Positions 2,686 to 18,038 of a DNA stretch of 64,000 bases are shown here, piece by piece (positions within the stretch are counted from its first letter, which is position 1; every line of letters begins with the position of its first letter). The notes beneath the pieces are model-generated. The model had not been told where the DNA came from. It saw only the letters and a program-made list of their open reading frames with translations, and searched no databases. Position numbers and translations under genes: made by a program. Source of the DNA: Flavobacteriales bacterium (GTDB taxonomy: Bacteria > Bacteroidota > Bacteroidia > Flavobacteriales_F > PHOS-HE28); assembly GCA_039931265.1 (NCBI GenBank), contig JBDTSG010000013.1, positions 14,711 to 78,710 of the forward strand, in the 5' to 3' direction.

Positions 2686-3713
2686 ACATGATGAAAGCCT
2701 GGCTCCTCACCAAGAACGGCGATCCGCTGAACGCCTTCGTATTGCGCGAGGTGGAAGCACCGACGCTGAAGCCGGGACATGTGCGCATCATGTCCGAAGG
2801 CTTCGGACTGAACTATGCTGACGCGATGGCCGTCGCCGGGCTCTACCGCGAAGCGCCGCCCTTGCCGAGCATCATCGGTTACGAAATGGTGGGAAGGGTA
2901 ACCGAATGTGGTGAAGGAGTTGCACCGGACCTCCGCGGCAAACGCGTGCTCGCGTTGACACGCTTCGGCGGGTATGCCCAACAAGCGGTGGTCGATATGC
3001 GTGGTGTCGTGCAGCTATCGGAGGACATTCCCATCGGTGAAGCGCTGGCGCTCGGGACCCAAGGATGCACAGCATGGTACATGGCCACATACGCGTTCCC
3101 ATTGATGGCGGGACAACGTGTGTTGGTGCACAGTGCCGCAGGTGGGGTCGGGCAAATGCTGGTGCGGATCGCCCAACACCGCGGGTGCGAAGTGTTCGCG
3201 GTCGTTGGCTCCAAGGCGAAGGCGGATCGCATCCGCAGCATGGGCGTGCATCATGTGGTGGACCGTTCCCAAGGCGACTATGCAATGCAGGCGCGCAATC
3301 TCCTTGGCAAGTCGCGGTTCGATGTCAGTTTCAATCCGGTTGCGGGTGCCACCTTCAAGAAGGACATGGGGTTGGTGGGTAGTGGTGGTGCCGTGGTGCT
3401 CTTCGGTGGCGCCGCGCGCTCCGGGAAGGCGGGCGGCATTTTCGCTTCGCTGAAGTTCGTTTGGGACATGGGCCTGCTGTTGCCCATCGGGTTGATGATG
3501 CGCAGCAAGAGCGTGATCGGCATCAACATGCTGAAGCTCGGTGATCATCGTCCGGAATTGATGGGCCGTTGCCTGCGGGAAGTAGTGCAGGCCCACACCG
3601 ATGGTATTGTGCGGCCGCACGTGCATGGCTTGGTGGCCGTGGCCGACATGCCCGAGGCCCTTGCCGATCTCGGCGCTGGCCGCACAATGGGCAAGGTTGC
3701 CGTGGTGTGGTAA
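2682..3713 (+). CDS. MDR-family zinc-binding dehydrogenase / NADPH:quinone oxidoreductase-like
   Basis: GroES-like N-domain, HVRIMSEGFGLNYADAMAVAGLY. Rossmann motif HSAAGGVGQMLVRIA. 343 aa. Start overlaps the rsmI stop. Confidence 0.75.
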   Translation: MNMMKAWLLTKNGDPLNAFVLREVEAPTLKPGHVRIMSEGFGLNYADAMAVAGLYREAPPLPSIIGYEMVGRVTECGEGVAPDLRGKRVLALTRFGGYAQQAVVDMRGVVQLSEDIPIGEALALGTQGCTAWYMATYAFPLMAGQRVLVHSAAGGVGQMLVRIAQHRGCEVFAVVGSKAKADRIRSMGVHHVVDRSQGDYAMQARNLLGKSRFDVSFNPVAGATFKKDMGLVGSGGAVVLFGGAARSGKAGGIFASLKFVWDMGLLLPIGLMMRSKSVIGINMLKLGDHRPELMGRCLREVVQAHTDGIVRPHVHGLVAVADMPEALADLGAGRTMGKVAVVW

Positions 3714-3750
3714 GGCGGATCGCGTTCGGCGTGGGGATTACCTTGCAGCC

Positions 3751-4725
3751 ATGAAGGCCTTCCTCGAACGACTTGTGCTGCGCACCATGTTGCGCGGCGA
3801 TGTTGCCGCGAAAGGCGAGGAGGAGATCTCTCCATTCGCACTGGCCAAAGGCTATCGTGCATTGCGCGTGCTGGCATGGCGCACCACAAAGGACATCGCC
3901 ATGCTGGTCACGGGTGTTGCCTCGGCCGCTTTCGGCTTGGAGAGCTTCCTGTTGCCGAACACTTTCATCGATGGCGGTGCAACCGGCATTGCGCTGCTCA
4001 TTACCGCGTACAGTGGCCTGCCGTTAGGTGTTTGGTTGGCGTTGGTGAACGTGCCGTTCATCCTCATGGCCTACCGGATGTTGGGAAAGGAGTTCGCCAT
4101 GAAGACGGTTGCGGGCATTGTAGCGCTCGCGCTGGCCGTGAGCCTTGTGCATTTCCCGCAGGTAACGCACGACAAGCTGCTGGTGGCCGTGTTCGGCGGG
4201 TTCTTCCTGGGGCTCGGCATCGGGCTGGCGGTGCGGGCCGGTGCGGTGATCGACGGTACGGAAGTCTTGGCCATAGCCATCAGTCGGCGCACGGGCCTCA
4301 CCATCGGCGATGTGATCCTCTTCGTCAACGTGATCATTTTCGGTGTGGCGGCTTGGTTGCTCACCGTGGAGATCGCGCTGTACAGCATGATCACCTACCT
4401 CGCCGCAGGGCGCACCGTCGATTTCATCATTGAAGGGATCGAGGAATACACCGGGGTCACCATCATCAGTCCGCACAGCGATGAACTGCGCGACATGATC
4501 GTGCACAAACTGCGGCGTGGCATCACGGTATACAACGGGAAACGCGGCTACGGTACGCACGGCCATGCACACGATACGGAGATCCTCTACTGCGTGATCA
4601 CACGACTTGAAGTAGGCAAGCTCACTGCGGAGATCCGCCGCATCGACCCCAATGCTTTCGTGATCATGAGCAGCATCAAGGACACGCGTGGCGGCATGAT
4701 CAAGCAGCGCCGGCATAAGCACTGA
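3751..4725 (+). CDS. YitT-family membrane protein (DUF161 repeats plus C-terminal DUF2179)
   Basis: Internal ATG at 3751 (MKAFLERLV). There are multiple TM helices and two GxxxIDGGATG-like halves. The soluble C-terminal domain is GITVYNGKRGYG...IKDTRGG. The ORF-track start at 3601 is an upstream extension. Confidence 0.7.
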   Translation: MKAFLERLVLRTMLRGDVAAKGEEEISPFALAKGYRALRVLAWRTTKDIAMLVTGVASAAFGLESFLLPNTFIDGGATGIALLITAYSGLPLGVWLALVNVPFILMAYRMLGKEFAMKTVAGIVALALAVSLVHFPQVTHDKLLVAVFGGFFLGLGIGLAVRAGAVIDGTEVLAIAISRRTGLTIGDVILFVNVIIFGVAAWLLTVEIALYSMITYLAAGRTVDFIIEGIEEYTGVTIISPHSDELRDMIVHKLRRGITVYNGKRGYGTHGHAHDTEILYCVITRLEVGKLTAEIRRIDPNAFVIMSSIKDTRGGMIKQRRHKH

Positions 4726-4856: not shown

Positions 4857-4886
4857 GATGAACAACCTTGGCGGGTCGCTCTCGTC
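4857..4886 (+). promoter_or_regulatory. conserved upstream motif GATGAACAACCTTGGCG with ECF-like AAC-N16-CGTC geometry, 50 nt before the paralog 1 ATG
   Basis: The 17-mer recurs at 7394..7410 (GATGAGCAACCTTGGCG) at a near-identical distance from the paralog 2 ATG. The two copies are in different reading frames relative to their downstream genes, so the motif is non-coding. In this copy AAC at 4864-4866 is followed by a 16-nt spacer and CGTC at 4883-4886. Confidence 0.35.
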
Positions 4887-4906
4887 TACGCTACAGATCG
4901 CCCTCA

Positions 4907-7381
4907 ATGAAACGCTTGATCCCTTTTACGTCGTGCTTTCTTGTATTGAACGCGACCGCCCAGCTCGGGCCGGAGCATCGGTTCGTTTATCCCACTGATG
5001 CATGGGCCGTGGTGATCGGGGACATGGATACAGACGCTGATGGTGACGCGGTACAAGGGAACAGTGATCACATTTGGGTGCATGAACAGTTCGCGCTGAA
5101 CCAGTTCCGCGTGACCCATGACCTTGGTTCACCCGGCCGCACGGATCGTTTGCGCATGGCCGATCTCAACGGCGATGGCATCGACGATCTGGTGATGCCG
5201 CGCCGCGATGCCGACGCGATCGCATGGGTGCAGGTGTTGGGCGGCGGGAGTTTCGGGCCGCTGCAGGATCTGGTAACCGGCATCAACCAACCCTTCGATG
5301 TGCAGGTGCATGATCTGGACGGGGATGCTGACATGGACCTGGTCTTCGCTTATGACACCTCCTCGGTGCAGGTGGCTTGGGCACCGGCCTTGGGCGGTGG
5401 TGTGTTCGGTCCAACAGTCGTCATCAGCACTACCGGGTTGGGTTTCCAGATCCCGGAGGACGTGAGCTTCTTCGATGTGGGCGATGTGGACAACGACGGC
5501 GATCAGGATATCGTGGCGAAGGGTGCGGCCCTGACATGGATGGAGAACGATGGGGCGGGGAATTTTTCCACCGTGGCCATACCTGCCAGTTCCAATGTGT
5601 GGGATGTTCAGCTGGCCAATGTGAACGGCGACCCGTATCCCGACCTGATGACCATGGAGAACGATGACATCCACCGTCGGTTGAACAACGGCGGTGCCGG
5701 GTTCAACGCAGCCACGCCGATGCTCATCCTCGACGATGCCCAATACGCCTCGCGCATGGAGATGGAGGATGTGGATGGTGATGGCGACATGGATCTGCTC
5801 TATCGATGGGGAGGCATCGTTTCATTCACCCATAGTGTGCGTGTTCAACTGAACAATGGAGCGGGCAGCTTCAATGCGGGTACCGTCTCTCTGTTTTCCG
5901 ACACGCAACAACCGTTCGCCGTGGGTGATCTTGATGGCGCTGGCGATCGCGACCTGTTCGGGCAGGCGAACCATGGATTGTTCGTTGTGCCCGATGGAGG
6001 CAGTGCCCATATCCGCCTTACCTCGGTGCCCAAGCCCGATCATGTATCGGTTGCGGACGTGAACGGCGATGGCAGCAATGATGTGGTCGTATCCGGTCCT
6101 ACCACCTTCAGTCCATTGACCGAAGGTTTTCGACCACTGCAATTAGGTGTGCATTTGAACGACGCTATCGGGAACGTGAATGAAACACCGCTCGATGGCC
6201 TGGTTTCACCCTGTCCCATCCTTCGCACCGATACCGCAGACCTGGATGGCGACGGCGATCAAGACCTTGTTGCACTATGGCAGGAACCACAGGCCGGTAC
6301 CATGAAACAGTTCATGGTATTGGAGAACCAGAACGGCGTATTCGATTCCATCGGTGCTATCGGTCCCCAGTGGTTTCCATGGATCCCCGAAGATCCGTTC
6401 CAACCCGTGCTGCGCGACATCGACGGAGATACGGATATCGACCTGATGCGGCACATTTCATCCGGGTTGTACCGGAGCGCGAACAATGGCAGTGCGGTGT
6501 TCGGTCCAGAGCAGGAGTTCGATCCAGGAGGCATGTGGATCCTTAGCGCCGCAACGCTTTGCGATGTGGACAACAGCAGTTTGCCCGACTATGTGTGGAG
6601 CCATGGGAACTTCGGCGGTGCCGGACCCGATTCGATCTTCTGGAACGAGAACCTCGGCCTTGGTGTTCCGGGCCCTAACCAATTCGTGGCGATCTCCCCT
6701 GTGCTGACCTTCGCCAACGTCCCGATCCACAGCCAGGTGCTTTCGGGAACGGATCTGAACAGCGATGGGCTCGAAGACCTGCTGATCTTCAATGGTGATT
6801 CGTTGGGCGTTATGTACAACACCGGGGGTGTCCTTAACCCTGCCCAAGAGTGGGCGTGCAACGCGATCGCCTATGCCGTGGGCGATATGGACGGGAACGG
6901 CTATGTGGATATCGTAACGCTGAGCCCGAATGCCGACATTATCGCATACCTCAACAACGGACTTGTTTTCGGCGTGGGCCAATTGATGGCGGCTGCACCG
7001 CAGAGCACCGGCACCAGCCACCTCGCTCTTGCTGATATGGATGGCGACCTCGACCTGGATGTGATCACCTGTTCGGTGAACGGCAGTGCGGCGTGGTTGG
7101 GTAATACGGGCAACTTCCCGTTGGGTATTCCGGAGGCGCGTGCGCACACCACGGTTCATGTTTATCCGAACCCCAGCAGCAGCGGCTTCACGTTGCACGC
7201 ATCTGCGCCGATCCTCAACGCGCAGTTGCTCGACGTGCGTGGCCGTGTCCTCAGGACCATTCACGGCAATGGTACCAACGAATTGCGCATCGAGCGGGGC
7301 GACTTGTTGCAGGGTTTGTATTTGGTGCGGGTGGTGCAGGGCAATGGTGCTGCGTTAACGAGCAGGGTGGTGATGGAATGA
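4907..7381 (+). CDS. FG-GAP (VCBS/integrin-alpha beta-propeller) repeat protein with T9SS type A C-terminal sorting domain, paralog 1
   Basis: Signal peptide MKRLIPFTSCFLVLNATAQ at the ATG 4907; the track start at 4868 is a TTG. Many DxDGDGxxDLV FG-GAP motifs. The C-terminus VHVYPNPSSSGFTLHA...GLYLVRVVQGNGAALTSRVVME is a Por secretion-tail type A domain. Confidence 0.8.
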   Translation: MKRLIPFTSCFLVLNATAQLGPEHRFVYPTDAWAVVIGDMDTDADGDAVQGNSDHIWVHEQFALNQFRVTHDLGSPGRTDRLRMADLNGDGIDDLVMPRRDADAIAWVQVLGGGSFGPLQDLVTGINQPFDVQVHDLDGDADMDLVFAYDTSSVQVAWAPALGGGVFGPTVVISTTGLGFQIPEDVSFFDVGDVDNDGDQDIVAKGAALTWMENDGAGNFSTVAIPASSNVWDVQLANVNGDPYPDLMTMENDDIHRRLNNGGAGFNAATPMLILDDAQYASRMEMEDVDGDGDMDLLYRWGGIVSFTHSVRVQLNNGAGSFNAGTVSLFSDTQQPFAVGDLDGAGDRDLFGQANHGLFVVPDGGSAHIRLTSVPKPDHVSVADVNGDGSNDVVVSGPTTFSPLTEGFRPLQLGVHLNDAIGNVNETPLDGLVSPCPILRTDTADLDGDGDQDLVALWQEPQAGTMKQFMVLENQNGVFDSIGAIGPQWFPWIPEDPFQPVLRDIDGDTDIDLMRHISSGLYRSANNGSAVFGPEQEFDPGGMWILSAATLCDVDNSSLPDYVWSHGNFGGAGPDSIFWNENLGLGVPGPNQFVAISPVLTFANVPIHSQVLSGTDLNSDGLEDLLIFNGDSLGVMYNTGGVLNPAQEWACNAIAYAVGDMDGNGYVDIVTLSPNADIIAYLNNGLVFGVGQLMAAAPQSTGTSHLALADMDGDLDLDVITCSVNGSAAWLGNTGNFPLGIPEARAHTTVHVYPNPSSSGFTLHASAPILNAQLLDVRGRVLRTIHGNGTNELRIERGDLLQGLYLVRVVQGNGAALTSRVVME
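6272..7047. repeat. ~776-bp tract essentially identical to 8796..9571 (gene-conversion-like block shared by the two FG-GAP paralogs)
   Basis: The encoded peptide LVALWQEPQAGTMKQ...DMDGDLDLDVITC is identical in both genes. The embedded six-frame ORFs are identical at a constant 2524-bp offset (6277/8801, 6486/9010, 6850/9374, 6589/9113). By eye, identity falls sharply to roughly 70-80% outside the boundaries at 6271/8795 and 7048/9572. Confidence 0.85.
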
Positions 7382-7393
7382 TCCAGACCTTGT

Positions 7394-7410
7394 GATGAGC
7401 AACCTTGGCG
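7394..7410 (+). promoter_or_regulatory. second copy of the conserved upstream 17-mer (GATGAGCAACCTTGGCG), 52 nt before the paralog 2 ATG
   Basis: 16 of 17 identical to 4857..4873. The -10-like CGTC is not conserved here. Confidence 0.3.
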
Positions 7411-7445
7411 CACTGTCGCGATCCGCTCAACCCAACACCTCCAAT

Positions 7446-9905
7446 ATGAAACGTTTGATCGTGCTGTTGCCTTGGTTGATCGGTGTGAACATGAATGCGC
7501 AGCTCGGTCCTGAGCACCGCTTCGTTTATCCCGGCGATGCTTGGGCCCTGGCGATCGCCGACGTGGACAATGATGGTGATGGTGACATCGTACGTTCAAC
7601 AACGGGTCCATTGGTCGTCCATGCGCAGGTGGCACCGAACACGTACAGTGTCATCTATGAACTGGGGATGGCCGGGATCGCTGATCGGGTGAGGTTCGCG
7701 GATCTGGACGGCGATGGCATCGAGGACATCGTCTTATCTCGACGAACTGCAAGTGCGGTTGCTTGGGTGCGCGTGCTTGGTGGAGGGAATTTCGGCGTAC
7801 TGGAGAACCTTGTGGCAGGCATTCCTCAAGCGTTCGATGTTCAGATTGAGGACGTGGATGGCGACGGCGATCCGGACCTGGTGTTCGCATACGCGATGTT
7901 GGACGCCACATTGGCGTGGGCACCGAACTTGGGTGGCGGGGTGTTCGGCGCGACGCAGGTCATCGTTGCGACGTCTTTTTCCGTCGACCCGCAACTGGGC
8001 AGTTTTTTCGATAGCGGTGATATCGACCAGGATGGTGATATCGACTTCATGACCAGGACGGCCAATGCCCTGAAATGGTGGGAGAACGACGGCGTCGGCG
8101 GGTTCTCATTGGTGAGCATACCGGGAAGCTCGGGTGTTTATGATGTTCAACTGGCGGATATCGACGGGGACCTTGCGCCTGACATCCTCTTCAGCAGATC
8201 GAACGATCTCTGGAAGTGCGTGAACAACGGGTCGGGCGGATTCGCACCAGAAGAGGCATTGATGCAGTACACCACGAACTTGAAGAATCGCATGGAGGCC
8301 TTGGACCTTGATGGCGATGGAGACGAGGATGTGGCGTACCGGAGGGGAGGCGGCATCGGCATTTCGCACGTGATGGGCGGGTCGATCAACGATGGCATCG
8401 GGAATTTCAGTCAAGTTGGCAGCGCATTGCCGGGGGACTTTCCGCAACCCTTCGCGTACGGGGATCTCAACGGTGCACCGCCGCTCGATCTGGTCGGTTA
8501 TGCGAACGACGGGCTGTACGTCGCTCCTTTTCCGCAGCGTTTGAATTCCGTGACGGGGGCGGTCCATGTTTCCATCTCCGACTTTGATCTCGATGGTGAC
8601 AATGACGTAGTGCTTTCCGGCCAAAACTGGTTCAGTCCGCTCGCCGAGGGACTACGACCGCTCCAACTGGCTCTTCACTCCAATGATGGGGCCGGGGTGA
8701 TGCTGCAGTCGCCCGAAGAACTTTGGGTATCTGCGGCAAGCATTGCCAGGGCCGACGCGAAGGACCTGGACGGTGATGGTGACGATGATCTCGTGGCACT
8801 ATGGCAGGAACCACAGGCCGGTACCATGAAACAGTTCATGGTATTGGAGAACCAGAACGGCGTATTCGATTCCATCGGTGCTATCGGTCCCCAGTGGTTT
8901 CCATGGATCCCCGAAGATCCGTTCCAACCCGTGCTGCGCGACATCGACGGAGATACGGATATCGACCTGATGCGGCACATTTCATCCGGGTTGTACCGGA
9001 GCGCGAACAATGGCAGTGCGGTGTTCGGTCCAGAGCAGGAGTTCGATCCAGGAGGCATGTGGATCCTTAGCGCCGCAACGCTTTGCGATGTGGACAACAG
9101 CAGTTTGCCCGACTATGTGTGGAGCCATGGGAACTTCGGCGGTGCCGGACCCGATTCGATCTTCTGGAACGAGAACCTCGGCCTTGGTGTTCCGGGCCCT
9201 AACCAATTCGTGGCGATCTCCCCTGTGCTGACCTTCGCCAACGTCCCGATCCACAGCCAGGTGCTTTCGGGAACGGATCTGAACAGCGATGGGCTCGAAG
9301 ACCTGCTGATCTTCAATGGTGATTCGTTGGGCGTTATGTACAACACCGGGGGTGTCCTTAACCCTGCCCAAGAGTGGGCGTGCAACGCGATCGCCTATGC
9401 CGTGGGCGATATGGACGGGAACGGCTATGTGGATATCGTAACGCTGAGCCCGAATGCCGACATTATCGCATACCTCAACAACGGACTTGTTTTCGGCGTG
9501 GGCCAATTGATGGCGGCTGCACCGCAGAGCACCGGCACCAGCCACCTCGCTCTTGCTGATATGGATGGCGATCTCGACCTGGACGTGATCACTTGCGCGG
9601 TGAACGGCAGTGCTGCGTGGCTTGGCAACACCGGGAATTTCCCGTTGGGAATTTCAGAGACACGCGTGCATGAAACGGTTCACATGTACCCGAACCCGAG
9701 CAGCAGTGGGTTCACCGTGCATGCTTTATGGGCGATCCAAAGCGTGCAGTTGCTCGACGTGCGCGGCCATGTTCTCTGGAGCATCCCCGGCAATGGCACC
9801 AACGAACTACGCATCGAACGCGGCGACTTGTCGGCGGGCTTGTATGTCGTGCGGGCAGTGCAGAGCACCGGTGCTGTTGCAACAAGCCGGGTGGTGGTGG
9901 GGTGA
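7446..9905 (+). CDS. FG-GAP repeat protein with T9SS type A C-terminal sorting domain, paralog 2
   Basis: Signal peptide MKRLIVLLPWLIGVNMNAQ at the ATG 7446; the track start at 7392 is a GTG. It has the same architecture as 4907..7381. The central ~776 bp are identical to paralog 1 and the C-terminal domain is VHMYPNPSSSGFTVHA... Confidence 0.8.
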   Translation: MKRLIVLLPWLIGVNMNAQLGPEHRFVYPGDAWALAIADVDNDGDGDIVRSTTGPLVVHAQVAPNTYSVIYELGMAGIADRVRFADLDGDGIEDIVLSRRTASAVAWVRVLGGGNFGVLENLVAGIPQAFDVQIEDVDGDGDPDLVFAYAMLDATLAWAPNLGGGVFGATQVIVATSFSVDPQLGSFFDSGDIDQDGDIDFMTRTANALKWWENDGVGGFSLVSIPGSSGVYDVQLADIDGDLAPDILFSRSNDLWKCVNNGSGGFAPEEALMQYTTNLKNRMEALDLDGDGDEDVAYRRGGGIGISHVMGGSINDGIGNFSQVGSALPGDFPQPFAYGDLNGAPPLDLVGYANDGLYVAPFPQRLNSVTGAVHVSISDFDLDGDNDVVLSGQNWFSPLAEGLRPLQLALHSNDGAGVMLQSPEELWVSAASIARADAKDLDGDGDDDLVALWQEPQAGTMKQFMVLENQNGVFDSIGAIGPQWFPWIPEDPFQPVLRDIDGDTDIDLMRHISSGLYRSANNGSAVFGPEQEFDPGGMWILSAATLCDVDNSSLPDYVWSHGNFGGAGPDSIFWNENLGLGVPGPNQFVAISPVLTFANVPIHSQVLSGTDLNSDGLEDLLIFNGDSLGVMYNTGGVLNPAQEWACNAIAYAVGDMDGNGYVDIVTLSPNADIIAYLNNGLVFGVGQLMAAAPQSTGTSHLALADMDGDLDLDVITCAVNGSAAWLGNTGNFPLGISETRVHETVHMYPNPSSSGFTVHALWAIQSVQLLDVRGHVLWSIPGNGTNELRIERGDLSAGLYVVRAVQSTGAVATSRVVVG
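8796..9571. repeat. second copy of the ~776-bp identical tract (see 6272..7047)
   Basis: As for 6272..7047. Confidence 0.85.
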
Positions 9906-9977
9906 CTGCGCTGCGGAGTGCAAGCAGTAGCTGGCCTCACCGGTTACTTTCCGCCCCCGACCTGTCGGGATCTACAC

Positions 9978-11501
9978 ATGTGGCTTTTGCGGTTGCGCTG
10001 GTCTGGGTGGCTTTGGTTGCTTGTGATCGCCAACGCGGCTTGTCCGCTTTTCTTCCGCTGCTTCATTACGTTGGATGGACCTGTGCATGTGTTGCATGCG
10101 GCGCTGCTCGGGGACGCGATCGGGGAAAGAACGTATGTCGCCCATGGCTTGCAATATGATCTGGGCCGTATTGATATCGGGCTGCTTGATCCAGTGGCCA
10201 TACTGCTGTTGAAGCTGTTGGCACCCGAACTTGTCGAGACGTTCTTGGGGGTGATCGTCCTGCTGATGTTTGGTGCAGGTGCGATCGCCTATGTGCGGGC
10301 ATATGCGGGTGAACGCCGGATGCTCGTTGTGTTGGCCCTTCCGCTCTCGTTCAGCGTGTTGCTCCTCCTCGGCCTGTTCCCCTTCGTTTTCTCCATTGGC
10401 CTCTGCCTTTGGTTGGCGGCGCGATGGGTGCGCATCTCGGAGGTGACCTTCCGGGTTCTGTGTCGCTCACTGCTCGCCATACTGCTCTGCGCCGCCGTGC
10501 ATCGGGGCGCACCCGTCTTGCTGGGTGTTTTCGTCGCTGTGCATGAAGTTTTGTTCTTCGCGGGGGATCGCGCGAAGTTCCAAGCTCGTTGGTCCGGCAT
10601 ACCACGCAAGTTGGCACGAGCGGTGCTTTCGTTGGGCGGGTTTGCGCTGGTGGCAACTGCCGTCCACTTCCTGTTTTTGCGCGGAGTGCTGGAAGCCGCA
10701 GCGGAACGCACACCGCTCGATGACCTGCTGCATGTGCGTCCGTTGCTGTTGCTGGATCACGTTGCTGAGCGGCCGCTGTGCATGGCGTTTGCCGCGTTGC
10801 TTTTGGTCTCGATGGGAACCGCGTTCCTGCATTTGCGCGTATGGCGCGTGCCGATCGTACACCATGCCCCGCTCTGCATTGGCTTGTTGTTCATCTTCTC
10901 ATCCCTATGTATCCGCACCGAGTGGGCCGACTTGCACTACTTCGGTGAGCGGGCGCAATTGCTAGGCCTACTGATGGCAGGGCTGTGGACCGCGGTGATC
11001 GTTCCCAACAACCGCTACGCGCAAGCTCTGGCTTTGGTCGTGGTCATTTTCCATGTGGTGCGTTCGGTCTACGTGGAACGCCGTATGGCTCAGTTTGCGG
11101 ATGAACGTGCGGCCGTGGTGGAAGTCGCGCGGCACTTGAAGCCCGGGGCATTGGTCGCCACGGTGCATTGCACCGATGATTGGCTGTTGCTGCATCAGTT
11201 CGCGCACCTCGCCACGCGGCACAAGGGTATCGTTCTCAGCAAGCGCGACAAGGTGTGGTTCGAGCGGAACAGCCCTGTGGCAATTGCGCTGCACCGTGCG
11301 ATCAATGGAAAGGAAGAGCGGTGGGAGTGGTTCGGGAGATGTGGGAGGGATCCCCTGTGTCCGCAGGTCGATCACGTTATCCTGATCGGCGATGAGCACG
11401 TTGATCAAGCCGCTAATTCAGATGCGTTGCGTGAAGTGCTGGTGCACGACTATGTGCCCGTGTACAACTCCGTCAGTGCTCAGATATGGGACCGACGTTG
11501 A
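9978..11501 (+). CDS. hypothetical polytopic membrane protein with ~180-aa C-terminal soluble domain
   Basis: ATG at 9978 (MWLLRLRWSGWLWLLVIANAA). There are at least 10 hydrophobic helices and I recognise no family motif. It sits directly downstream of the FG-GAP pair on the same strand. Confidence 0.45.
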   Translation: MWLLRLRWSGWLWLLVIANAACPLFFRCFITLDGPVHVLHAALLGDAIGERTYVAHGLQYDLGRIDIGLLDPVAILLLKLLAPELVETFLGVIVLLMFGAGAIAYVRAYAGERRMLVVLALPLSFSVLLLLGLFPFVFSIGLCLWLAARWVRISEVTFRVLCRSLLAILLCAAVHRGAPVLLGVFVAVHEVLFFAGDRAKFQARWSGIPRKLARAVLSLGGFALVATAVHFLFLRGVLEAAAERTPLDDLLHVRPLLLLDHVAERPLCMAFAALLLVSMGTAFLHLRVWRVPIVHHAPLCIGLLFIFSSLCIRTEWADLHYFGERAQLLGLLMAGLWTAVIVPNNRYAQALALVVVIFHVVRSVYVERRMAQFADERAAVVEVARHLKPGALVATVHCTDDWLLLHQFAHLATRHKGIVLSKRDKVWFERNSPVAIALHRAINGKEERWEWFGRCGRDPLCPQVDHVILIGDEHVDQAANSDALREVLVHDYVPVYNSVSAQIWDRR

Positions 11502-11510
11502 CCGGATCGC

Positions 11511-13298
11511 TCAATCCAACTTCAACACCGCCAAGAACGCCTGCTGCGGGATCTCCACTGAGCCCACTGATCGCATGCGCTTCTTCCCTTCCTTCTGCTT
11601 CTCCAGCAGTTTACGTTTACGGCTGATGTCGCCGCCGTAGCACTTGGCGGTAACGTCTTTGCGCAGGGCCTTCACAGTTTCGCGCGCTACGATCTTGGCG
11701 CCGATGGCCGCTTGGATAGGGATGTCGAATTGTTGGCGGGGCAGGAGTTCTTTCAGCTTGCTGCACATCTTCTTGCCCAACTCGTGCGCGTGGTCGCGGT
11801 GGATCAGCGCGCTCAGTGCGTCCACCTGTTCGCTGTTCAGCAGGATGTCCAGCTTGATCAGGTCGCTCTCCTTGAAACCGATCGGGTGGTAATCGAACGA
11901 CGCGTAGCCCCGCGAGATCGATTTCAGCTTGTCGAAGAAATCGAACACCACTTCGCCCAGCGGCAGTTCGAAGGAGAGTTCCACGCGATCGGTGGTGAGG
12001 TAGTTCTGGCCGATCAGCATGCCGCGCTTCTCGATGCACAAGGTCATGATCGCACCGGTGTACTCGCTCTTGGTGATCACCTGCGCTTTGATGTAGGGCT
12101 CCTCGATCTTCTCGATGTGCATTACCTCCGGCAGTTCGCTGGGGTTGTGCACGTTCACCACATCGCCGTTGGTCTTGGTAACGATGTAGCCCACGTTCGG
12201 CACAGTGGTGATCACCGTCATGTTGAACTCGCGTTCAAGCCGCTCTTGGATGATCTCCATGTGCAACAGTCCGAGGAAGCCACAACGGAATCCGAAACCG
12301 AGTGCTGCGCTGCTTTCGGGTGTCCATGTGAGGCTCGCGTCGTTCAACTTCAGCTTCTCCATGGCGTCGCGCAGCTCTTCGTACTCGTCGGTGTCCACGG
12401 GGAAGATGCCCGCCCATACCATCGGCTTCACATCCTCGAACCCCTTGATGGCTTCAAGACACGGGCGCTCTTGGTGGGTGATCGTGTCGCCCACCTTCAC
12501 TTCACTGGCGGTCTTGATGCCGCTGATGATGTAGCCCACATCGCCGGCGAGCACTTCATCGCGTGCGCGCAGGTCCATCTTCAGGATGCCCACCTCATCC
12601 GCGCCGTAAGTGACACCGGTGTTGAAGAACTTCACCTTGTCGTTCTTGCGAAGCGTGCCGTTGATCACCCTGAAATAGGCGATGATGCCACGGAAGCTGT
12701 TGAAGACACTATCGAAGATCAATGCCTGAAGTGGCGCCTTGGGATCGCCCTTGGGCGCGGGAACACGCGCCACCACAGCCTCCAGGATCTTGTCCACCCC
12801 GAGCCCGGTTTTCCCACTGGCCGGAAGGATCTCCTCCCGATCGCAGCCTATGAGATCCACGATCTGGTCCTTCACCTCTTCGGGGTTTGCCGATGGCAGG
12901 TCCATCTTGTTCAGGACCGGGATGATCGTGAGATCATGATCCAGCGCGAGGTACAGATTGCTGATGGTTTGCGCTTGGATGCCTTGTGTCGCGTCCACGA
13001 TCAAAAGGGCCCCTTCGCAAGCGGCGATGCTCCGGCTCACTTCGTAGCTGAAGTCCACGTGGCCGGGCGTGTCGATGAGGTTGAGGATGTACTTCTTCCC
13101 GTTCAAGGAGTAGTCCATCTGGATCGCCTTGCTCTTGATCGTGATCCCGCGCTCACGCTCCAAGTCCATATCGTCCAAGGCTTGGGCCTGCATGTCGCGG
13201 TCAGCGATCGTGCCGGTCATCTGCAGTAGCCGGTCAGCCAAGGTGCTTTTACCGTGGTCGATGTGGGCGATGATGCAGAAGTTCCGGATGTGATCCAT
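11511..13298 (-). CDS. lepA: elongation factor 4 (LepA)
   Basis: [26 protein letters not shown]1 motif, [13 protein letters not shown]. 595 aa. The C-terminal LepA domain is present. Confidence 0.95.
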
Positions 13299-13452: not shown

Positions 13453-14013
13453 ATGACGGACGAAAGAATGGTTGAAGGGTGCCGCCGGAACGAAGCGGCG
13501 GCGCAGAAAGCGCTGTACCAAGCTTACTCCAGGAAGATGATGGCCGTGTGCCTCCGATATGCCCATAGTCGCGACCAAGCGAAAGACATCCTGCAGGACG
13601 GGTTCGTGAAGGTGTTCCAGAAAATGGACCTGTACCGTGGGGATGGTCCTTTGGGCGGATGGATCGCTCGCACCATGGTGAATACTGCATTGGACCACCT
13701 TCGTCGCAACAAGCCCTTCGATCACAGCATCGACCTGGCCGACGCCGAGCACCTGCACAGTGAGGATGCCCATGTGGTGAGCAGCATGAGCACCGAGGAG
13801 TTGATGGGCTTGGTGCAAAGCCTGCCCCCCGGCTATAAGGTCGTCTTCAACATGTTTGCCATCGAAGGGTACTCGCACAAGGAGATCGCCGATCAGTTGG
13901 GCGTTAGCGAGAACACCAGCAAAAGCCAATTCATGAAAGCGCGGGCCTACCTGCGCAAGCTGCTTCCGAAAGAAGCCGCAGCACCATACGTACATGATGA
14001 ACAAGAAGGATGA
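13453..14013 (+). CDS. RNA polymerase ECF-type sigma-70 factor
   Basis: 186 aa. Region 2, YSRKMMAVCLRYAHSRDQAKDILQDGFVKVFQ. Region 4 helix-turn-helix, YSHKEIADQLGVSENTSKSQFMKARAYLRK. Confidence 0.85.
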   Translation: MTDERMVEGCRRNEAAAQKALYQAYSRKMMAVCLRYAHSRDQAKDILQDGFVKVFQKMDLYRGDGPLGGWIARTMVNTALDHLRRNKPFDHSIDLADAEHLHSEDAHVVSSMSTEELMGLVQSLPPGYKVVFNMFAIEGYSHKEIADQLGVSENTSKSQFMKARAYLRKLLPKEAAAPYVHDEQEG

Positions 14014-15049
14014 ACTGATCGACCTGCTCCGCGATCGCCTCGGCGATCTGGAAGCACCCGTGGACCCCGCCTTATGGCAGGGTATCCAAGGCCGCATGGT
14101 CGAAGCTGCCGTTGCCAGCGGGACCGACCCGGTAACGGAACTGTTCCGCAATGGATTGCAGAACGCGGAAGTGCCCATTGATCCGGGCGTATGGACGAAC
14201 ATCAGCAGCCAATTGGGCCATGGCGTTGCCGCAACCGGCGGAAGCCTTACGGCTTGGATCGGTGGTGGTATCGCCGCAGCCTTGGTGGCCGGTGGTCTGT
14301 GGTTGGGTTTGGGCGGTAGCGACGAAGTACCGGCCAAGGTGGCTGCCACCGTGACCGTTGTTCCGGGGGTGGTACAAGAGGTACCGACTGTTGAAACACC
14401 GGTGGTGACGGTGCCTTCCTCCGAGGCAGTGAAGGAAGAAGTGGCGATCGGGAATGAGCAACATGCTGTTGCCGCTCCATTAAGTGTCCGGGTTGATCCT
14501 CAAGAACGGAACGACAGCGAGAACGCTGATGATGTGAAGCCCGTTCCCGTCAATACGTTGCCGGCAGTGGCAACGGAAACGAAGTCCGAGGTACCCGGTC
14601 CCTTCATCGACAAGGTGAATGCGATCATTGAACGGGCCGAGGAGCGCATTGCTGCGGACCCGCATCCTGCCGAACAGGGGGATACCCGGATCCCACCATC
14701 GGAGAATCCCGAGACGGAAGCTGCTGAAGAGGCGGACCAGGAGACGGCCACGAATGCGGTAACCGAAAGCACCCACCTTTTCATTCCCAACGTGTTCACT
14801 CCCAATGAGGATGGTGTTAACGACGTGCTGGAAGTGAGCGCTATCGGCCTGTCCAACATCGCTGTTAGCATTTACAGCGCAACGAACGACAAGCTGGTTT
14901 TCCGGGCGGACAACCTCAGCCCGTGGGATGGGCGCGACGCCAGTGGCGCGCGCTGTGCGGAGGGGTACTACTTTTATGCGATTGAAGCCATCGGGCCTGA
15001 TGGCAAAGCCATGAGCAAAGGGCAAGTGGTACTGTTGAACATCCGCTGA
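13994..15049 (+). CDS. anti-sigma-like single-pass membrane protein with C-terminal gliding-motility/CHU_C (T9SS type B) domain
   Basis: Start overlaps the sigma stop by 20 bp. The N-terminal ~85 aa carry a duplicated (L/A)E(A/V)P(V/I)DP(A/G)(L/V)Wxx I motif. A single TM (TAWIGGGIAAALVAGGLWLGLGG) is followed by an acidic, proline-rich linker. The C-terminus is LFIPNVFTPNEDGVNDVLEV...WDGR...GYYFYAI, a CHU_C signature. Confidence 0.6.
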   Translation: MMNKKDELIDLLRDRLGDLEAPVDPALWQGIQGRMVEAAVASGTDPVTELFRNGLQNAEVPIDPGVWTNISSQLGHGVAATGGSLTAWIGGGIAAALVAGGLWLGLGGSDEVPAKVAATVTVVPGVVQEVPTVETPVVTVPSSEAVKEEVAIGNEQHAVAAPLSVRVDPQERNDSENADDVKPVPVNTLPAVATETKSEVPGPFIDKVNAIIERAEERIAADPHPAEQGDTRIPPSENPETEAAEEADQETATNAVTESTHLFIPNVFTPNEDGVNDVLEVSAIGLSNIAVSIYSATNDKLVFRADNLSPWDGRDASGARCAEGYYFYAIEAIGPDGKAMSKGQVVLLNIR

Positions 15050-15065
15050 CCAACGCCCCACCAAC

Positions 15066-18038
15066 ATGAAACAAGCATTGCGTATCGTCGGTTGCGTGAT
15101 CGCGGTGGCCCTTGGGTCGCGGATCGTGTCGCTGGGTCAACGGCAAGTGCTTGCTGGGAGCGATCACGCTGCGCTGAAGGCCGCTGGGCTCTTGAACGGA
15201 CGTGCTGATTTCAGCGTGTTGCCAGCACCGGCCGTTGGGAACAATGGTGCCGCAGGTCGTCTTGTTCCATCAACTCCGCCGGGCAATATGAAGGGTTCCG
15301 GCGCCGGTTGCGATTGTTGGATCGATCCCGATGCCTCCTACACTTTGGCAATGCTCCCGAACGATGATGGCAGCAGCTCCCAGATCCCCTTCCCCTTCTC
15401 CTTCGATCTCTACGGCGATCTTTATTCCGCATTGTGGATCAACAACAACGGCAATGTCACTTTCGATAACTCGTTCGGCGGTTTCACGTCTTCGGGTTTC
15501 CCCATGCAGCCGTACCCGATGGTGGCGCCTTTCTGGGCCGATGTGGATACGCGGCCTGTTGCAGGTGGTGAGGTCTGGTACAAGGTGACCCCCACGGCGG
15601 TTTTCGTGAACTGGGTGAACGTGGGTTACTACAGTATGATGACCGACAAGCTGAACAGCTTCCAGCTCATCCTCACCAACGGCAACGACCCGGTGATCGG
15701 TATCGGAAAGAACGTCAGTTTCTGCTATAAGGAAATGGAGTGGACCACTGGCGCGGCCTCGGGTGGTAATCTTGGTTTCGGTGGAACCGCAGCCAACGTG
15801 GGCGCCAATCGCGGCAACGGAACGGACTACCTTCAGTTCACCCGCCCTGACCAACCCGGTGCATTCTATGATGGTCCGTTCTTGTTGAATGATGGTATCG
15901 ACTGGCTCGATTTCAAACAATTCGTCTTCACCACGTCGGTCTTCACGAGCAATATCCCCCCGATCGGAAGCGGCACTACCCTTTGCGATACGGTTACCAC
16001 CTGCGTTGGTCAAACAGCTCAATTGGACATGACCTTCCTGTCGCCAGAACCGAACCAGATCACAACCGGGTTCAGTACAGCGCTCACGCTGAGCAATTAC
16101 GCGGAGATCATGAACACCAGTGGAGGGAACTCGATCCAGATCATCGGCGAGTTCACACCGACCCCGCTGGAGATCGGCTTCCATACCGTCACGTTCGAAG
16201 CCACGGACAATGGGGCACCACCGCTAACCGCCACTTACAACTTGGTAGTGCAGGTGTTGCCGGTGGGCATCACCATTGCGCCGACGGCCCTCAGCACTTG
16301 CACGGCCGCACCGCCGATCGACCTCTTCCTCCTGTTCAGTGGCAACCCACCGCTGGGTGGCGTTTGGCAGGACCCTAACGGTAACCCGTTCAGTGGAACG
16401 CTGGATCCCGCTGTGGATATCAGCGGCGATTATGCCTACATCCTCGGGAATGGTTCACCATGCCCAACCGTGGGGATCGTAACGGTCACCATCTCCACAA
16501 CACCCGATCCCGGTACACCGGGCTCGGGAACGTATTGCGCGGATAACGCCGTCGTGAACTTGTTCACTTTGCTCGGGGGTACGCCACAAGGAGGTGGCAC
16601 ATGGACCGACCCGAACAGCGCGCCCCATACCGCGATGATGGATCCAGCGATCGATCCATCAGGCATCTACACCTACACGATCAACGGGATCTTGCCCTGC
16701 CCAACGGCCAGCACCACCGTTACCATCACGATCAACCAACCTGTTGATGCCGGACAGGATGCGATGCTCGCGCTGTGCCGTGCCGATGCACCGATCGACC
16801 TGCTGACAGCATTGGGTGGTACGCCCGATGCCGGGGGCACTTGGGTGGATCCCAACCTCACAGCCTTCACGAACCCCTTGGATCCGGCTGTCGCTCTTCC
16901 CGGCATCTACACCTACACGATGGTCGGAGCAGCGCCTTGCCCGACCGAGTCGGCGAACGTTACGGTAGGCTTCGACCCGGTGCCCAACGCGGGTATCGAT
17001 GCAGTCTTCGATATCTGTTCCGACGGAAGTCCGACCGTGCTCTTTACGCTCTTGGGCGGCACGCCGGATCCCGGTGGCGCGTGGCTCAACCCCGCTATGG
17101 CAGCGCACACTGGAACGTTGATGCCCGCGACGGACCAGAACGGCGTGTACAAGTACGTGGCATACGGGGTGGGTTCATGCAGCGCCCTGACCGATACCGC
17201 CGATGTGGACGTGCTCATCAACTTATTGCCTGTTGTTCAGTTCAGTGGGGTGCCGATGGCGGGTTGTGCGCCGTTGAACGTGATGTTCACCAACTCCACC
17301 GACCCGGTATTCAACGCGAGTGCCGCTTGGGACATGGGTGATGGTGGAACCGGAAGCAACCTCACATTGCAGCCGTACACGTACAATACCCCAGGCATGT
17401 GGACCGTGAGCCTCACCGTTACCAGCGACAGCGGCTGTGTGGGCAACCTCACGTACAACGACATGATCCTTGTGGAGCCCGCACCACTGGCGGAATTCAT
17501 CGCTTACCCGAACCCGGCCACCGTGCAGAACAGTGCGGTGCTGCTGACCAGTACCGATCCGTATGCCGTCAACTTCGATTGGACCATCACCGTCCAGGAA
17601 ACCGGGGAAGTGCTCGGAACGAGCCAAGCACCCGAACTGCTTTTCGAATTCCCGAACACATTAGGGGGCTTGTACGACGTATGCCTCGCCGTGCAGGACA
17701 TCTACGGCTGTACCGACACGTTGTGCAAGGTGATAGACATCCGTGATCCGTTGCTGGTTTATGTGCCCAACACCTTCACCCCCGATGGCGATGGTATCAA
17801 CGACACATGGCTGCCCAGCGTAATGGGCAACGATCCCGGACAGCATGAACTGCTGGTCTTCGATCGGTGGGGCGGCATCGTTTTCCAAAGCAATGATCAA
17901 CACCAGGCTTGGGACGGAAAGCACCGCAATGGAGGCGAAGTGCTGGCCCAAGGCCTCTACACTTGGAAGCTGAAGGTCGCCCCGGAGAACGAAGGGGCCC
18001 GGAAAGAGTACATCGGGCACGTGACATTGATCAAGTGA
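15066..18038 (+). CDS. large secreted adhesin-like protein: NIDO-like N-domain, Ig-like domain, ~6 LGGTPxxGGxWxDPN repeats, PKD-like domains, T9SS type B (CHU_C) C-terminal domain
   Basis: Signal peptide MKQALRIVGCVIAVALG. N-domain WINNNGNVTFDNSFGGF...VAPFWADVDTRP. PKD-like SLTVTSDSGC. C-terminus YVPNTFTPDGDGINDTWLP...VFDRWGGIVFQS...WDGK. 16-bp gap from the upstream gene. Confidence 0.8.
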   Translation: MKQALRIVGCVIAVALGSRIVSLGQRQVLAGSDHAALKAAGLLNGRADFSVLPAPAVGNNGAAGRLVPSTPPGNMKGSGAGCDCWIDPDASYTLAMLPNDDGSSSQIPFPFSFDLYGDLYSALWINNNGNVTFDNSFGGFTSSGFPMQPYPMVAPFWADVDTRPVAGGEVWYKVTPTAVFVNWVNVGYYSMMTDKLNSFQLILTNGNDPVIGIGKNVSFCYKEMEWTTGAASGGNLGFGGTAANVGANRGNGTDYLQFTRPDQPGAFYDGPFLLNDGIDWLDFKQFVFTTSVFTSNIPPIGSGTTLCDTVTTCVGQTAQLDMTFLSPEPNQITTGFSTALTLSNYAEIMNTSGGNSIQIIGEFTPTPLEIGFHTVTFEATDNGAPPLTATYNLVVQVLPVGITIAPTALSTCTAAPPIDLFLLFSGNPPLGGVWQDPNGNPFSGTLDPAVDISGDYAYILGNGSPCPTVGIVTVTISTTPDPGTPGSGTYCADNAVVNLFTLLGGTPQGGGTWTDPNSAPHTAMMDPAIDPSGIYTYTINGILPCPTASTTVTITINQPVDAGQDAMLALCRADAPIDLLTALGGTPDAGGTWVDPNLTAFTNPLDPAVALPGIYTYTMVGAAPCPTESANVTVGFDPVPNAGIDAVFDICSDGSPTVLFTLLGGTPDPGGAWLNPAMAAHTGTLMPATDQNGVYKYVAYGVGSCSALTDTADVDVLINLLPVVQFSGVPMAGCAPLNVMFTNSTDPVFNASAAWDMGDGGTGSNLTLQPYTYNTPGMWTVSLTVTSDSGCVGNLTYNDMILVEPAPLAEFIAYPNPATVQNSAVLLTSTDPYAVNFDWTITVQETGEVLGTSQAPELLFEFPNTLGGLYDVCLAVQDIYGCTDTLCKVIDIRDPLLVYVPNTFTPDGDGINDTWLPSVMGNDPGQHELLVFDRWGGIVFQSNDQHQAWDGKHRNGGEVLAQGLYTWKLKVAPENEGARKEYIGHVTLIK

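Follow-up and report, generated by a model that had tools for sequence, protein, structure and literature searches.

Two adjacent genes of an uncultured Flavobacteriales bacterium, gene A (4907..7381) and gene B (7446..9905), share an internal block of 776 bp, and we consider it probable that B, the downstream tandem paralog, has recently received this block from A by non-reciprocal copying (gene conversion). The sequence is from a MAG in which the locus lies on a single contig of 83 kb; a window of 64 kb (64,000 nucleotides) was analysed, and the features given below are on its forward (+) strand unless stated otherwise. The original prediction had proposed that these tandem paralogs for surface proteins carry a tract of recent conversion or recombination; it is supported by the FG-GAP_3 and T9SS domains, the contrast in dS and the incongruence of trees. 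The present analysis adds the direction of the transfer, the chimeric nature of B, and an anomaly at the 5' edge of the tract.

The tandem genes and their shared block

The proteins encoded by A and B are deposited as MEO8066419.1 (824 aa) and MEO8066420.1 (819 aa; P0003 in the homologue set). A length of 837 codons, as first described, is correct for the maximal open reading frames (4868..7381 and 7392..9905) but not for the proteins, for which the deposited ATG starts are at 4907 and 7446. Both genes have the same architecture, consisting of a putative signal peptide, 14 FG-GAP blades and a type-A T9SS sorting domain. Assignment to the FG-GAP/VCBS propeller family (PF13517, PF01839) requires multiple repeats above the Pfam gathering threshold. 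With FG-GAP_3 the scores are 141.8 bits for A and 145.6 bits for B against a cut-off of 26.9, distributed over 7–8 stretches, with E-values of about 1e-42 in both genes (9.9e-42 and 7 stretches in A). A motif scan matched 12 calcium-loop motifs spaced 44–63 aa apart, and two more recognized by eye in wider gaps bring the number to 14. The AF2 model of A is all-beta (pLDDT 85.8, pTM 0.78), and the best PDB folds found with it are double seven-bladed propellers, i.e. Elp2 (8pty_B, TMq 0.49), DDB1 and BT4663. The 14 blades of A and B are predicted to form such a double propeller of two 7-blade units. At the C-terminus, Por_Secre_tail (PF18962) scores 31.5 bits in A and 27.4 in B against a cut-off of 27, and TIGR04183 scores 35.4 (residues 752–822) and 30.3 (747–818) against a cut-off of 23. 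The N-termini, read by eye, are hydrophobic and end in ...NATAQ (A) and ...NMNAQ (B). With a putative signal peptide and a CTD at the extreme C-terminus, both proteins have the features of type-A T9SS cargo. Neither reading frame is disrupted, and the block fits the blade pattern in register. The exact A and B proteins are present on one contig only, and searching the contig index for exact matches to A, B, P0003 and P0137 gave none. Gene A was absent from the first homologue search because of a database quirk, being clustered under an unrelated 55-aa JGI protein (P0138, from a RibD_C contig).

The base-for-base identity of 6272..7047 and 8796..9571 noted earlier is exact: an ungapped comparison at an offset of 2524 shows a single unbroken run of 776 matching nt, and in the pairwise alignment of the two genes the block has no scattered mismatches. 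That embedded open reading frames are identical at a constant offset is also correct, but this is a trivial consequence of the identity of the block. According to both a repeat search and self-BLAST, the window has no long repeat besides this pair. The block lies in frame in A as well as in B and comprises 258 identical codons, encoding aa 456–713 of A and aa 451–708 of B. In A it extends from just after calcium-loop motif 9 into motif 14 and so spans some five blades of the second propeller. The chance of a perfect run of 776 nt at 77% identity, the level of the better-conserved flank, is about 10^-88. With no difference in 776 nt, the 95% upper bound on the divergence is 0.39%, which makes the transfer very recent.

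Synonymous divergence of the two genes is saturated in the N-terminal part (dS at least 2.9), nil in the block (dS 0) and intermediate in the tail (dS 0.85). As dN/dS is 0.1–0.2 throughout, it follows from these values that the identity of the block is not caused by constraint. Purifying selection is ruled out as the cause, as synonymous sites in the block are also identical, while the A orthologues differ at 41–52% of them. An origin from a mobile element or IS is likewise excluded by the block being in frame, propeller-coding, without inverted repeats and confined to these two genes. Diversity-generating retroelements possess TR and VR copies that differ at adenine positions and have a reverse transcriptase nearby; here the copies are 776 nt long with zero differences, which rules out this type of element, and no reverse transcriptase was found among the neighbouring genes scanned, a scan covering part of the window. 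GRINS-type repeats, which PMC8256042 characterizes by intense local nucleotide skews within the repeated segment, are also rejected, at least by that description: the GC skew of the block ranges from -0.07 to +0.12 in 200-nt windows, the same as in the flanks.

The exact identity and the copy number rest on one MAG contig, which counts against conversion and raises the question whether the block was produced by assembly. The same graph path could have been threaded through both genes, or variant bubbles could have been popped, in which case the true copies differ or the middle of B is different. Two passes through a 776-nt repeat need repeat resolution or long reads, and the source is a MAG with the locus on a single 83-kb contig. 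Furthermore, the assembly of one relative, a short-read MAG, is broken precisely at a repeat of 85–127 nt in the corresponding gene array, which makes repeats at this locus a known hazard for assembly. However, the junctions of the A N-terminal part with the block, of the block with the A tail, intergenic region and B N-terminal part, of the B N-terminal part with the block, and of the block with the B tail are all unique and must come from reads. Sequences of 57–77% identity cannot collapse; only a few differences between near-identical copies could have been lost. Exact anchors longer than the assembler k would be needed at both ends, and such anchors themselves imply recent exchange. The intact frames, the blade register of the block, and a window free of Ns and other anomalies also argue against an artefact, which we regard as quite unlikely. 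The 776-bp repeat is nevertheless a hazard for assembly and read mapping.

Segment histories and direction of transfer

Outside the block, A and B are old paralogs, with ends that are unequally diverged. The 5' parts (aa 1–455) are 57% identical at the nucleotide level and 51% at the amino acid level, with an identity of 0.39 at third codon positions. The 55–70% identity first estimated for the ends agrees with this 5' value but is too low for the 3' tails (aa 714–824), which are 77% (nt) and 76% (aa) identical. The A tail, 7048..7381, encodes the last blade and the T9SS CTD and has its counterpart in B at 9572–9905; there are 76 mismatches in 334 nt, and homology ends at the stop codons, with random similarity beyond. 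The dS of the tail (0.85) is similar to the distance between orthologues. Within the tail, pS is 0.67 for codons 714–760 and 0.40 for the CTD, but these samples of 47 and 64 codons are too small to indicate nested tracts.

For comparison, syntenic loci in three relatives (L041, L042 and L001) were used. Trees of the three segments (N-terminal, block and tail) are incongruent with 100% bootstrap. In the N-terminal tree, B is outside the group formed by A, L041_g1, L001_g, L042_g1 and P0005 (100%). In the block and tail trees, it falls inside the group of A, B, L041_g1 and L042_g1 (100% each). The N-terminal part of A is 81% identical (nt) to L041_g1, which is P0001, and 67% to L042_g1, and the block is 84% and 81% identical to these genes, with block dS values of 0.60 and 0.88, respectively. 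The N-terminal part of B, in contrast, is only 55–58% identical (nt) to everything compared and is placed outside the clade of A-type and g2-type genes. Judged by sequence, B is a chimera of an anciently diverged N-terminal part of 450 aa and an A-type C-terminal part of 369 aa. Since its three segments have three different histories, whole-gene trees and orthology calls at this locus will be wrong. The two signs by which gene conversion is usually recognized can be read from the alignments and trees, namely a run of identity far beyond the divergence of the flanks and a tract that disagrees with its flanks by grouping with the donor lineage.

The block and tail of B are nested in the clade of A orthologues and its N-terminal part is outside, and A is therefore likely the donor of the block and B the recipient. 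A comparison with orthologous loci had been suggested for checking the tract, and no comparable block was found in the relatives, L041 and L042 included. The direction is based on the pS to L041_g1, 0.41 for the block against 0.55 for the B tail, a difference of only about 2 standard errors. Neither an orthologue of B nor a second strain was found in the relatives or in the homologue searches. Only P0001–P0005 are more than 50% identical to A in the homologue search, and the best match to the N-terminal half of B in a metagenome scan had 29% identity. In an exhaustive HMMER search the best colinear non-self match was 42% (P0148), where it should be considered that matches of at least 50% would fall inside the cluster of P0003. 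Two genes considered as positional orthologues of B, L041_g2 (467 aa) and L041_g3, were ruled out by identities of 24–36%.

Edges of the tract and possible mechanisms

Both edges of the tract lie in or adjoin FG-GAP calcium-loop motifs. The chance that both fall within 33 nt of a motif start, as estimated from the motif map, is about 4%. At the 3' edge the boundary motif DMDGDLDLDV (7034..7065 in A, 9558–9589 in B) contains the first mismatch, at 7048, beyond which identity is 85% at first and about 75% after that. On the 5' side, where the edge is 33 nt past the start of motif 9, the drop to about 58% is immediate; the 33 nt next to the edge are 72% identical. The original prediction of an abrupt drop to some 70–80% at both edges thus describes the 3' side well but not the 5' side. 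The 5' boundary motif, DLDGDGDQDLV in A (6239..6271; B counterpart 8763–8795), is conserved in amino acids between A and B (DLDGDGDxDLV) but differs at nearly every third base, and the only 8-mer shared by the two copies is GACCTGGA. Further upstream, codons 380–455 have a pS of 0.89 between A and B, which implies that there is no A–B nucleotide homology in this stretch. Homologous flanks are accordingly present on one side only: 77% identity in the 3' flank versus a 33-nt motif at 72% in the 5' flank. With synonymous sites of the 5' flank saturated, the event may have been one-sided or may have halted at an older homology boundary.

In view of the above, the following route for conversion can be considered. 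In an older exchange B would have gained an A-like C-terminal half, of which the 77% identical tail with its dS of about 0.85 would be the remnant. The residual A–B homology would then have allowed RecA-type recombinational repair with A, 2.5 kb upstream, as the template, and this repair would have overwritten the region of B coding for blades 10–14 of the second propeller. The tract would end inside calcium-loop motif 14 on the 3' side and, on the 5' side, beside motif 9 where A–B nucleotide homology stops. The length of the tract fits conversion as measured in the Salmonella tuf system, where the mean walk is about 500 nt in each direction (PMC5485169). The 5' edge abutting sequence without nucleotide homology argues against two-sided conversion and is not predicted by the simple model; in the Salmonella tuf model, events that reach the end of homology are aborted (PMC5485169).

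The same edge could instead be a junction, if B is a fusion in which an illegitimate or microhomology event at an FG-GAP calcium loop joined the old N-terminal half of B to A-derived sequence. This could have occurred through a deletion between B and a lost A-like third paralog, through a replication template switch, or through tail-anchored, one-sided homology-facilitated illegitimate recombination. Such a fusion would account for a 5' edge that borders non-homologous sequence and lacks a zone of intermediate identity. In-register microhomology could be provided by motif copies of 32–35 nt, twelve or more of which, with 63–88% identity, are scattered through both genes, and array members have been gained and lost in relatives. 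Yet a separate event is needed to explain why identity stops at 7047 with a tail that is 23% diverged, and the fusion must further assume either a gene that has since been lost or a template switch with two ends. Fusion thus appears an unlikely origin of the block, though one to be taken seriously, and conversion from A remains the preferred explanation.

According to the predicted architecture, A and B now have identical C-terminal propeller faces and different N-terminal propellers. The block also forms a 776-bp direct repeat with copies 1.7 kb apart, through which the 2524-bp unit can be lost or duplicated.

The array in relatives and comparison with known systems

The two genes form an array with conserved borders. 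On the left is a gene for a YitT-family membrane protein (3601..4725, assigned with Pfam), found at the same position in L041 and L042. The right border is a polytopic membrane ORF of 527 aa (9918..11501), which had no family match in profile searches and is about 52% identical to the ORFs of 508 and 518 aa that occupy this position in L041 and L042; next comes lepA, on the reverse strand (11511-13298). The position of the array between YitT and the membrane ORF with lepA is conserved, with a different gene content in every relative. Non-orthologous array members have CTD tails in common, and from the varying content together with these shared tails it follows that recombination in the array recurs. 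Gain and loss of members also happens, since there are relatives with three or more FG-GAP paralogs and an extra paralog, P0004, has identical 85-nt repeats on both sides. [quoted passage not shown]

These observations may suggest programmed variation, with the members of the array exchanging blade cassettes at high frequency, as in antigenic variation. The proteins are predicted to be secreted by the T9SS or surface-exposed, the array content differs in every relative, both edges are at repeat motifs (about 4% by chance), and CTD tails are shuffled among members. However, the window contains only two copies, both in complete genes with a start codon, signal peptide and CTD, and no silent partial cassettes. 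Among the neighbouring genes scanned there is no recombinase, invertible promoter or reverse transcriptase, L041 and L042 lack a comparable block, and one event is no proof of high frequency. Programmed variation of this kind is very improbable. Cassette antigenic variation of the pilE/pilS, vlsE and msp2 types, defined by one expression site and several silent, promoterless, partial donor cassettes, was rejected, both copies being full-length ORFs. A broader and rather speculative idea, to which we give little credence, is that the array between YitT and lepA is a recombination-driven diversification locus for T9SS-secreted double propellers. Calcium-loop motifs would act as in-register junctions. 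Array members would exchange or homogenize whole blocks of blades and, separately, their CTD tails along with the intergenic promoter. The 776-bp tract would then be a snapshot of a frequent and selectable process, for example under phage or grazer pressure, instead of a one-off repair.

The tract is a new instance of a known process and reveals no new mechanism or function. As a gene conversion it is a clean, datable, segmental case that has given an uncultured environmental member of the Flavobacteriales a chimeric surface protein. In Helicobacter pylori the bab loci are dispersed, and their exchange has phenotypic consequences that were shown in hosts. The similarity with the A/B pair is that the surface paralogs babA and babB swap segments by gene conversion, giving chimeras with the 5' part of one gene and the 3' part of the other (for example PMC4552749). 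The tandem paralog cluster lpl of Staphylococcus aureus (Tsuru and Kobayashi 2008, PMC2568036) also consists of tandem genes for exported proteins, with a highly conserved centre between variable 5' and 3' regions. There, too, the two ends of a single ORF give conflicting trees, and conversions, deletions and duplications are explained by recombination at the conserved region; the repeated unit of MFD10527 resembles lpl as well. The differences are that the present locus has two genes in a single genome, that the shared region is exactly identical and recent instead of a long-maintained core, and that the proteins are unrelated, being FG-GAP propellers with a T9SS CTD here and lipoprotein-like in lpl. 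The kgp, rgpA and hagA genes of Porphyromonas gingivalis (PMC5266723) are closer in that they encode T9SS cargo of Bacteroidota and have identical repeats between paralogs, with modular rearrangement by recombination or gene conversion and repeats that defeat automated assembly. These genes are dispersed, have cleaved-adhesin and DUF2436 modules and vary across many strains (PMC5266723), whereas A and B are neighbours, share a module of five propeller blades and come from one genome. In Salmonella tufA and tufB (Paulsson et al. 2017, PMC5485169), non-reciprocal transfer also takes place between two chromosomal paralogs with tracts of the same order of length. The tuf copies are near-identical from end to end, with homology setting the limits of conversion on either side (PMC5485169), while here the 5' flank is without nucleotide homology and the flanks are 23–43% diverged.

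Searches of the window for tRNAs and Rfam families found none, and a scan for sigma-70 promoters and terminators performed no better than on shuffled sequence. A candidate promoter motif, GAACAAC-N16-CGTC, is located upstream of A (4860..4886). Compared with ECF consensus sequences, it may be an ECF-sigma-type promoter. The core AAC-N16-CGTC is conserved upstream of the A-type genes in L041, L042 and L001, and a degenerate version is present upstream of B at about 7397-7423.

The identical block in two adjacent genes

Two adjacent open reading frames on the forward strand, 4868..7381 and 7392..9905, hold gene A (4907..7381, ATG at 4907, 824 aa, deposited as MEO8066419.1) and gene B (7446..9905, ATG at 7446, 819 aa, MEO8066420.1), both located on the 83,329-bp contig of one Flavobacteriales MAG. 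The proteins match FG-GAP_3 (E about 1e-42, 7-8 stretches each) and carry a type-A T9SS sorting domain that scores above the curated cut-offs. Per protein, 12 calcium-loop motifs (DxDxDGxxD) spaced 44-63 aa apart are found by motif scan, and two further motifs read by eye in two wider gaps bring the number to 14. The AlphaFold2 model of A (22-sequence alignment, pLDDT 85.8, pTM 0.78) is predicted to be all-beta, with a disordered linker preceding the C-terminal domain, and its closest PDB matches are the double seven-blade propellers Elp2, DDB1 and BT4663.

When the sequence is compared with itself at a shift of 2524 nt and without gaps, 6272..7047 in A and 8796..9571 in B form a single perfect run of 776 nt, in frame in both genes and with 0 differences, which bears out the original prediction of a base-for-base identical block free of scattered mismatches. 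The block covers aa 456-713 of A, from just past motif 9 into motif 14, which amounts to some five blades in the second propeller. If the 77% identity of the more similar flank is taken as the baseline, a run of this length has a probability of about 10^-88, and the lack of differences limits block divergence to at most 0.39% at 95% confidence. A repeat search and two self-BLAST runs recovered this pair and detected no second long repeat within the 64-kb window.

A codon alignment of A and B was divided into three segments. The N-terminal part (aa 1-455) is 57% identical in nucleotides and 51% in amino acids, with a third-position identity of 0.39 and a saturated dS of at least 2.9; the block is 100% identical at both levels (third-position 1.00, dS 0); and the tail that follows it (aa 714-824) shows 77% and 76% identity, a third-position value of 0.62 and a dS of 0.85. 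The identity of about 55-70% estimated by eye for the gene ends holds for the N-terminal part but is too low for the tail. The dN/dS ratio is 0.1-0.2 in every segment, and homology ends at the stop codons. Constraint is ruled out as the cause of the identity, since orthologues of A differ at 41-52% of the synonymous sites of this same block.

Small bubbles might have been popped during assembly, so that exactly identical might really mean nearly identical, and a single path enclosed by two exact anchors might also have been used for both copies. The repeat cannot be generated by assembly out of stretches that share only 57-77% identity, the four unique junctions that flank the copies must come from reads, and the tandem order is set by the unique sequence of the A tail, the intergenic region and the N-terminal part of B. 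Even an artefact would therefore require recently exchanged sequence.

Relatives of the array and the direction of transfer

The gene order in the window is ADH, YitT, the paralog array, a membrane ORF of 5xx aa and lepA (minus strand). Synteny of the locus extends to three relatives: L041 (from Logan, a contig of SRR28032186), L042 (a 119-kb ENA scaffold) and MAG MFD10527 (contigs L001 and L002). The array content is different in each. In L041 a 467-aa FG-GAP protein and two DUF7619 proteins follow the A orthologue P0001; in L042 the order is a DUF7619 protein, P0002 and a 1257-aa FG-GAP+DUF7619 protein; MFD10527 has P0004 in addition. In none of the three was a long high-identity tract between paralogs or an orthologue of B found, and additional searches for one gave either no hit or no usable information. 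In the protein collection (P0137/P0138), the 90%-identity cluster holding protein A is represented by an unrelated 55-aa JGI protein, a database artefact by which A was hidden from the homologue search. The membrane ORF directly downstream of the array (9918-11501, plus strand, 527 aa, polytopic) shows a pronounced excess of T over A (AT skew -0.27) and is without a Pfam or NCBIfam match; counterparts of about 52% identity occupy the same position in L041 and L042.

The N-terminal part of A is 81% identical in nucleotides to the A orthologue of L041, while that of B is 55-58% identical to everything. The block is 84% and 81% identical to the A orthologues of L041 and L042, respectively, and the tail of B is 69-77% identical to A-type tails. 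Neighbour-joining trees with bootstrap agree with these matrices. In the N-terminal tree B falls outside a clade of the A-type genes plus even the g2-type P0005 (100% support); in the block tree A and B pair within the clade that also holds both A orthologues (100%); and the tail tree recovers the same four-member clade (100% support). Together, matrices and trees show B to be a chimera and the block to be an original part of the A lineage, and a transfer from A to B is favoured. In synonymous distance to the A orthologue of L041, the block (pS 0.41) is closer to the rest of A (0.45-0.49) than to the tail of B (0.55), the latter difference being only about 2 standard errors.

Tract edges and possible mechanism

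What A and B show is gene conversion or segmental recombination within a tandem pair of paralogs that encode exported proteins. Related phenomena are well documented for the S. aureus lpl cluster (PMC2568036), for kgp, rgpA and hagA, which encode T9SS cargo in P. gingivalis (PMC5266723), for tufA/tufB of Salmonella (PMC5485169) and for the bab genes of H. pylori. The A/B tract is a new instance of this known process, clean, datable and with an identifiable donor, its 5' edge being the one anomalous detail. Cassette-type antigenic variation is rejected because the window holds only two copies, both complete genes; a DGR is ruled out by copies without any difference, and a GRINS-like element by a nucleotide skew in the block that is not unusual.

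In the simplest account, two events followed one another. The older one would have supplied B with an A-type C-terminal half, of which the present tail would be the remnant; its dS of about 0.85 is much like that separating the compared species. In the second event, a very recent one, 776 bp would have been copied non-reciprocally and thereby re-homogenised. This size is within the range measured for bacterial conversion; in Salmonella tuf the mean walk is about 500 nt in each direction (PMC5485169).

Abrupt boundaries had been described on both sides. At the 5' edge this is what is found: the preceding 33 nt encode DLDGDGDxDLV in both genes with nearly every third base different, and codons 380-455 have a pS of 0.89. 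At the 3' edge, where the first mismatch (7048) lies within DMDGDLDLDV, identity steps down to 85% for the 33 nt that follow and to about 75% farther on. Since no zone of intermediate identity was seen between A and B 5' of the tract, the tract adjoins non-homologous sequence, and this edge is the one feature that does not fit plain two-sided conversion. The tract may have extended to a pre-existing homology boundary. Alternatively, the event may have been one-sided: homology in the tail would have anchored it, and its other end would be a microhomology junction in a calcium-loop motif, where the 8-mer GACCTGGA is common to both genes at 6239/8763. B may also have arisen by deletion, as a fusion with an A-like paralog since lost. 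At either end the tract stops no more than 33 nt from where a motif starts, for which the motif map (14 motifs per gene) gives an estimated chance of about 4%; the coincidence is suggestive only.

Other repeats and possible regulatory features

In MFD10527, the 2616-nt contig L001, which carries P0004, has the same 85 nt at its start (1-85) and end (2532-2616), and these are also the first 85 nt (1-85) of the next contig, L002. The last 127 nt of L001 are 99% identical to the tail of the L042 gene g0 (9851-9977), and the scaffold L042, which lacks P0004, shares 98% identity with L002. The repeated unit around the extra paralog thus consists of the tail of the C-terminal domain, the intergenic stretch and the beginning of the gene that follows, the pattern described for the S. 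aureus lpl cluster (PMC2568036). These repeats reflect either copy-number polymorphism via identical tail and intergenic repeats or an assembly-graph bubble, and so hint only weakly at recombination elsewhere in the array. Tails are also common to non-orthologous members: that of L041 g2 resembles that of L042 g1, and the tail of the L001 gene matches that of L042 g0.

A second tandem pair of paralogs, 15066-18038 and 18067-20175 (plus strand), has a NIDO, PKD and CHU_C architecture; identity between the two genes reaches only about 64% across some 640 nt, and no homogenised tract was found between them. At 62122-63738 (plus strand) a 538-aa type-A T9SS protein is encoded in a region with a GC content of 0.52 vs about 0.59, with internal direct repeats of 360-nt period and about 65% identity.

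GAACAAC-N16-CGTC (4860-4886), which precedes the ATG of A by about 20-45 nt, resembles an ECF-sigma promoter and is a candidate for one. AAC-N16-CGTC is kept upstream of A-type genes in L041 (about 1255-1285), L042 (about 10010-10040) and L001 (about 110-140), and the version of gene B, GAGCAAC-N16-GATC (about 7397-7423), is degenerate in its -10-like part. In the window the 11-base motif has a single exact match; if one mismatch is allowed there are 2 matches, not enriched vs shuffled sequence. A 186-aa ORF (13453-14013, plus strand) was read by eye as a putative ECF-type sigma factor, and the syntenic counterpart of this ORF in L042 carries Sigma70_r2/r4_2. Its end overlaps the beginning of a gene (13994-15049, plus strand) for a 351-aa protein whose C-terminal domain is of the CHU_C (type-B T9SS) kind. 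The two, which adjoin the array, are possibly a sigma/anti-sigma-like pair.
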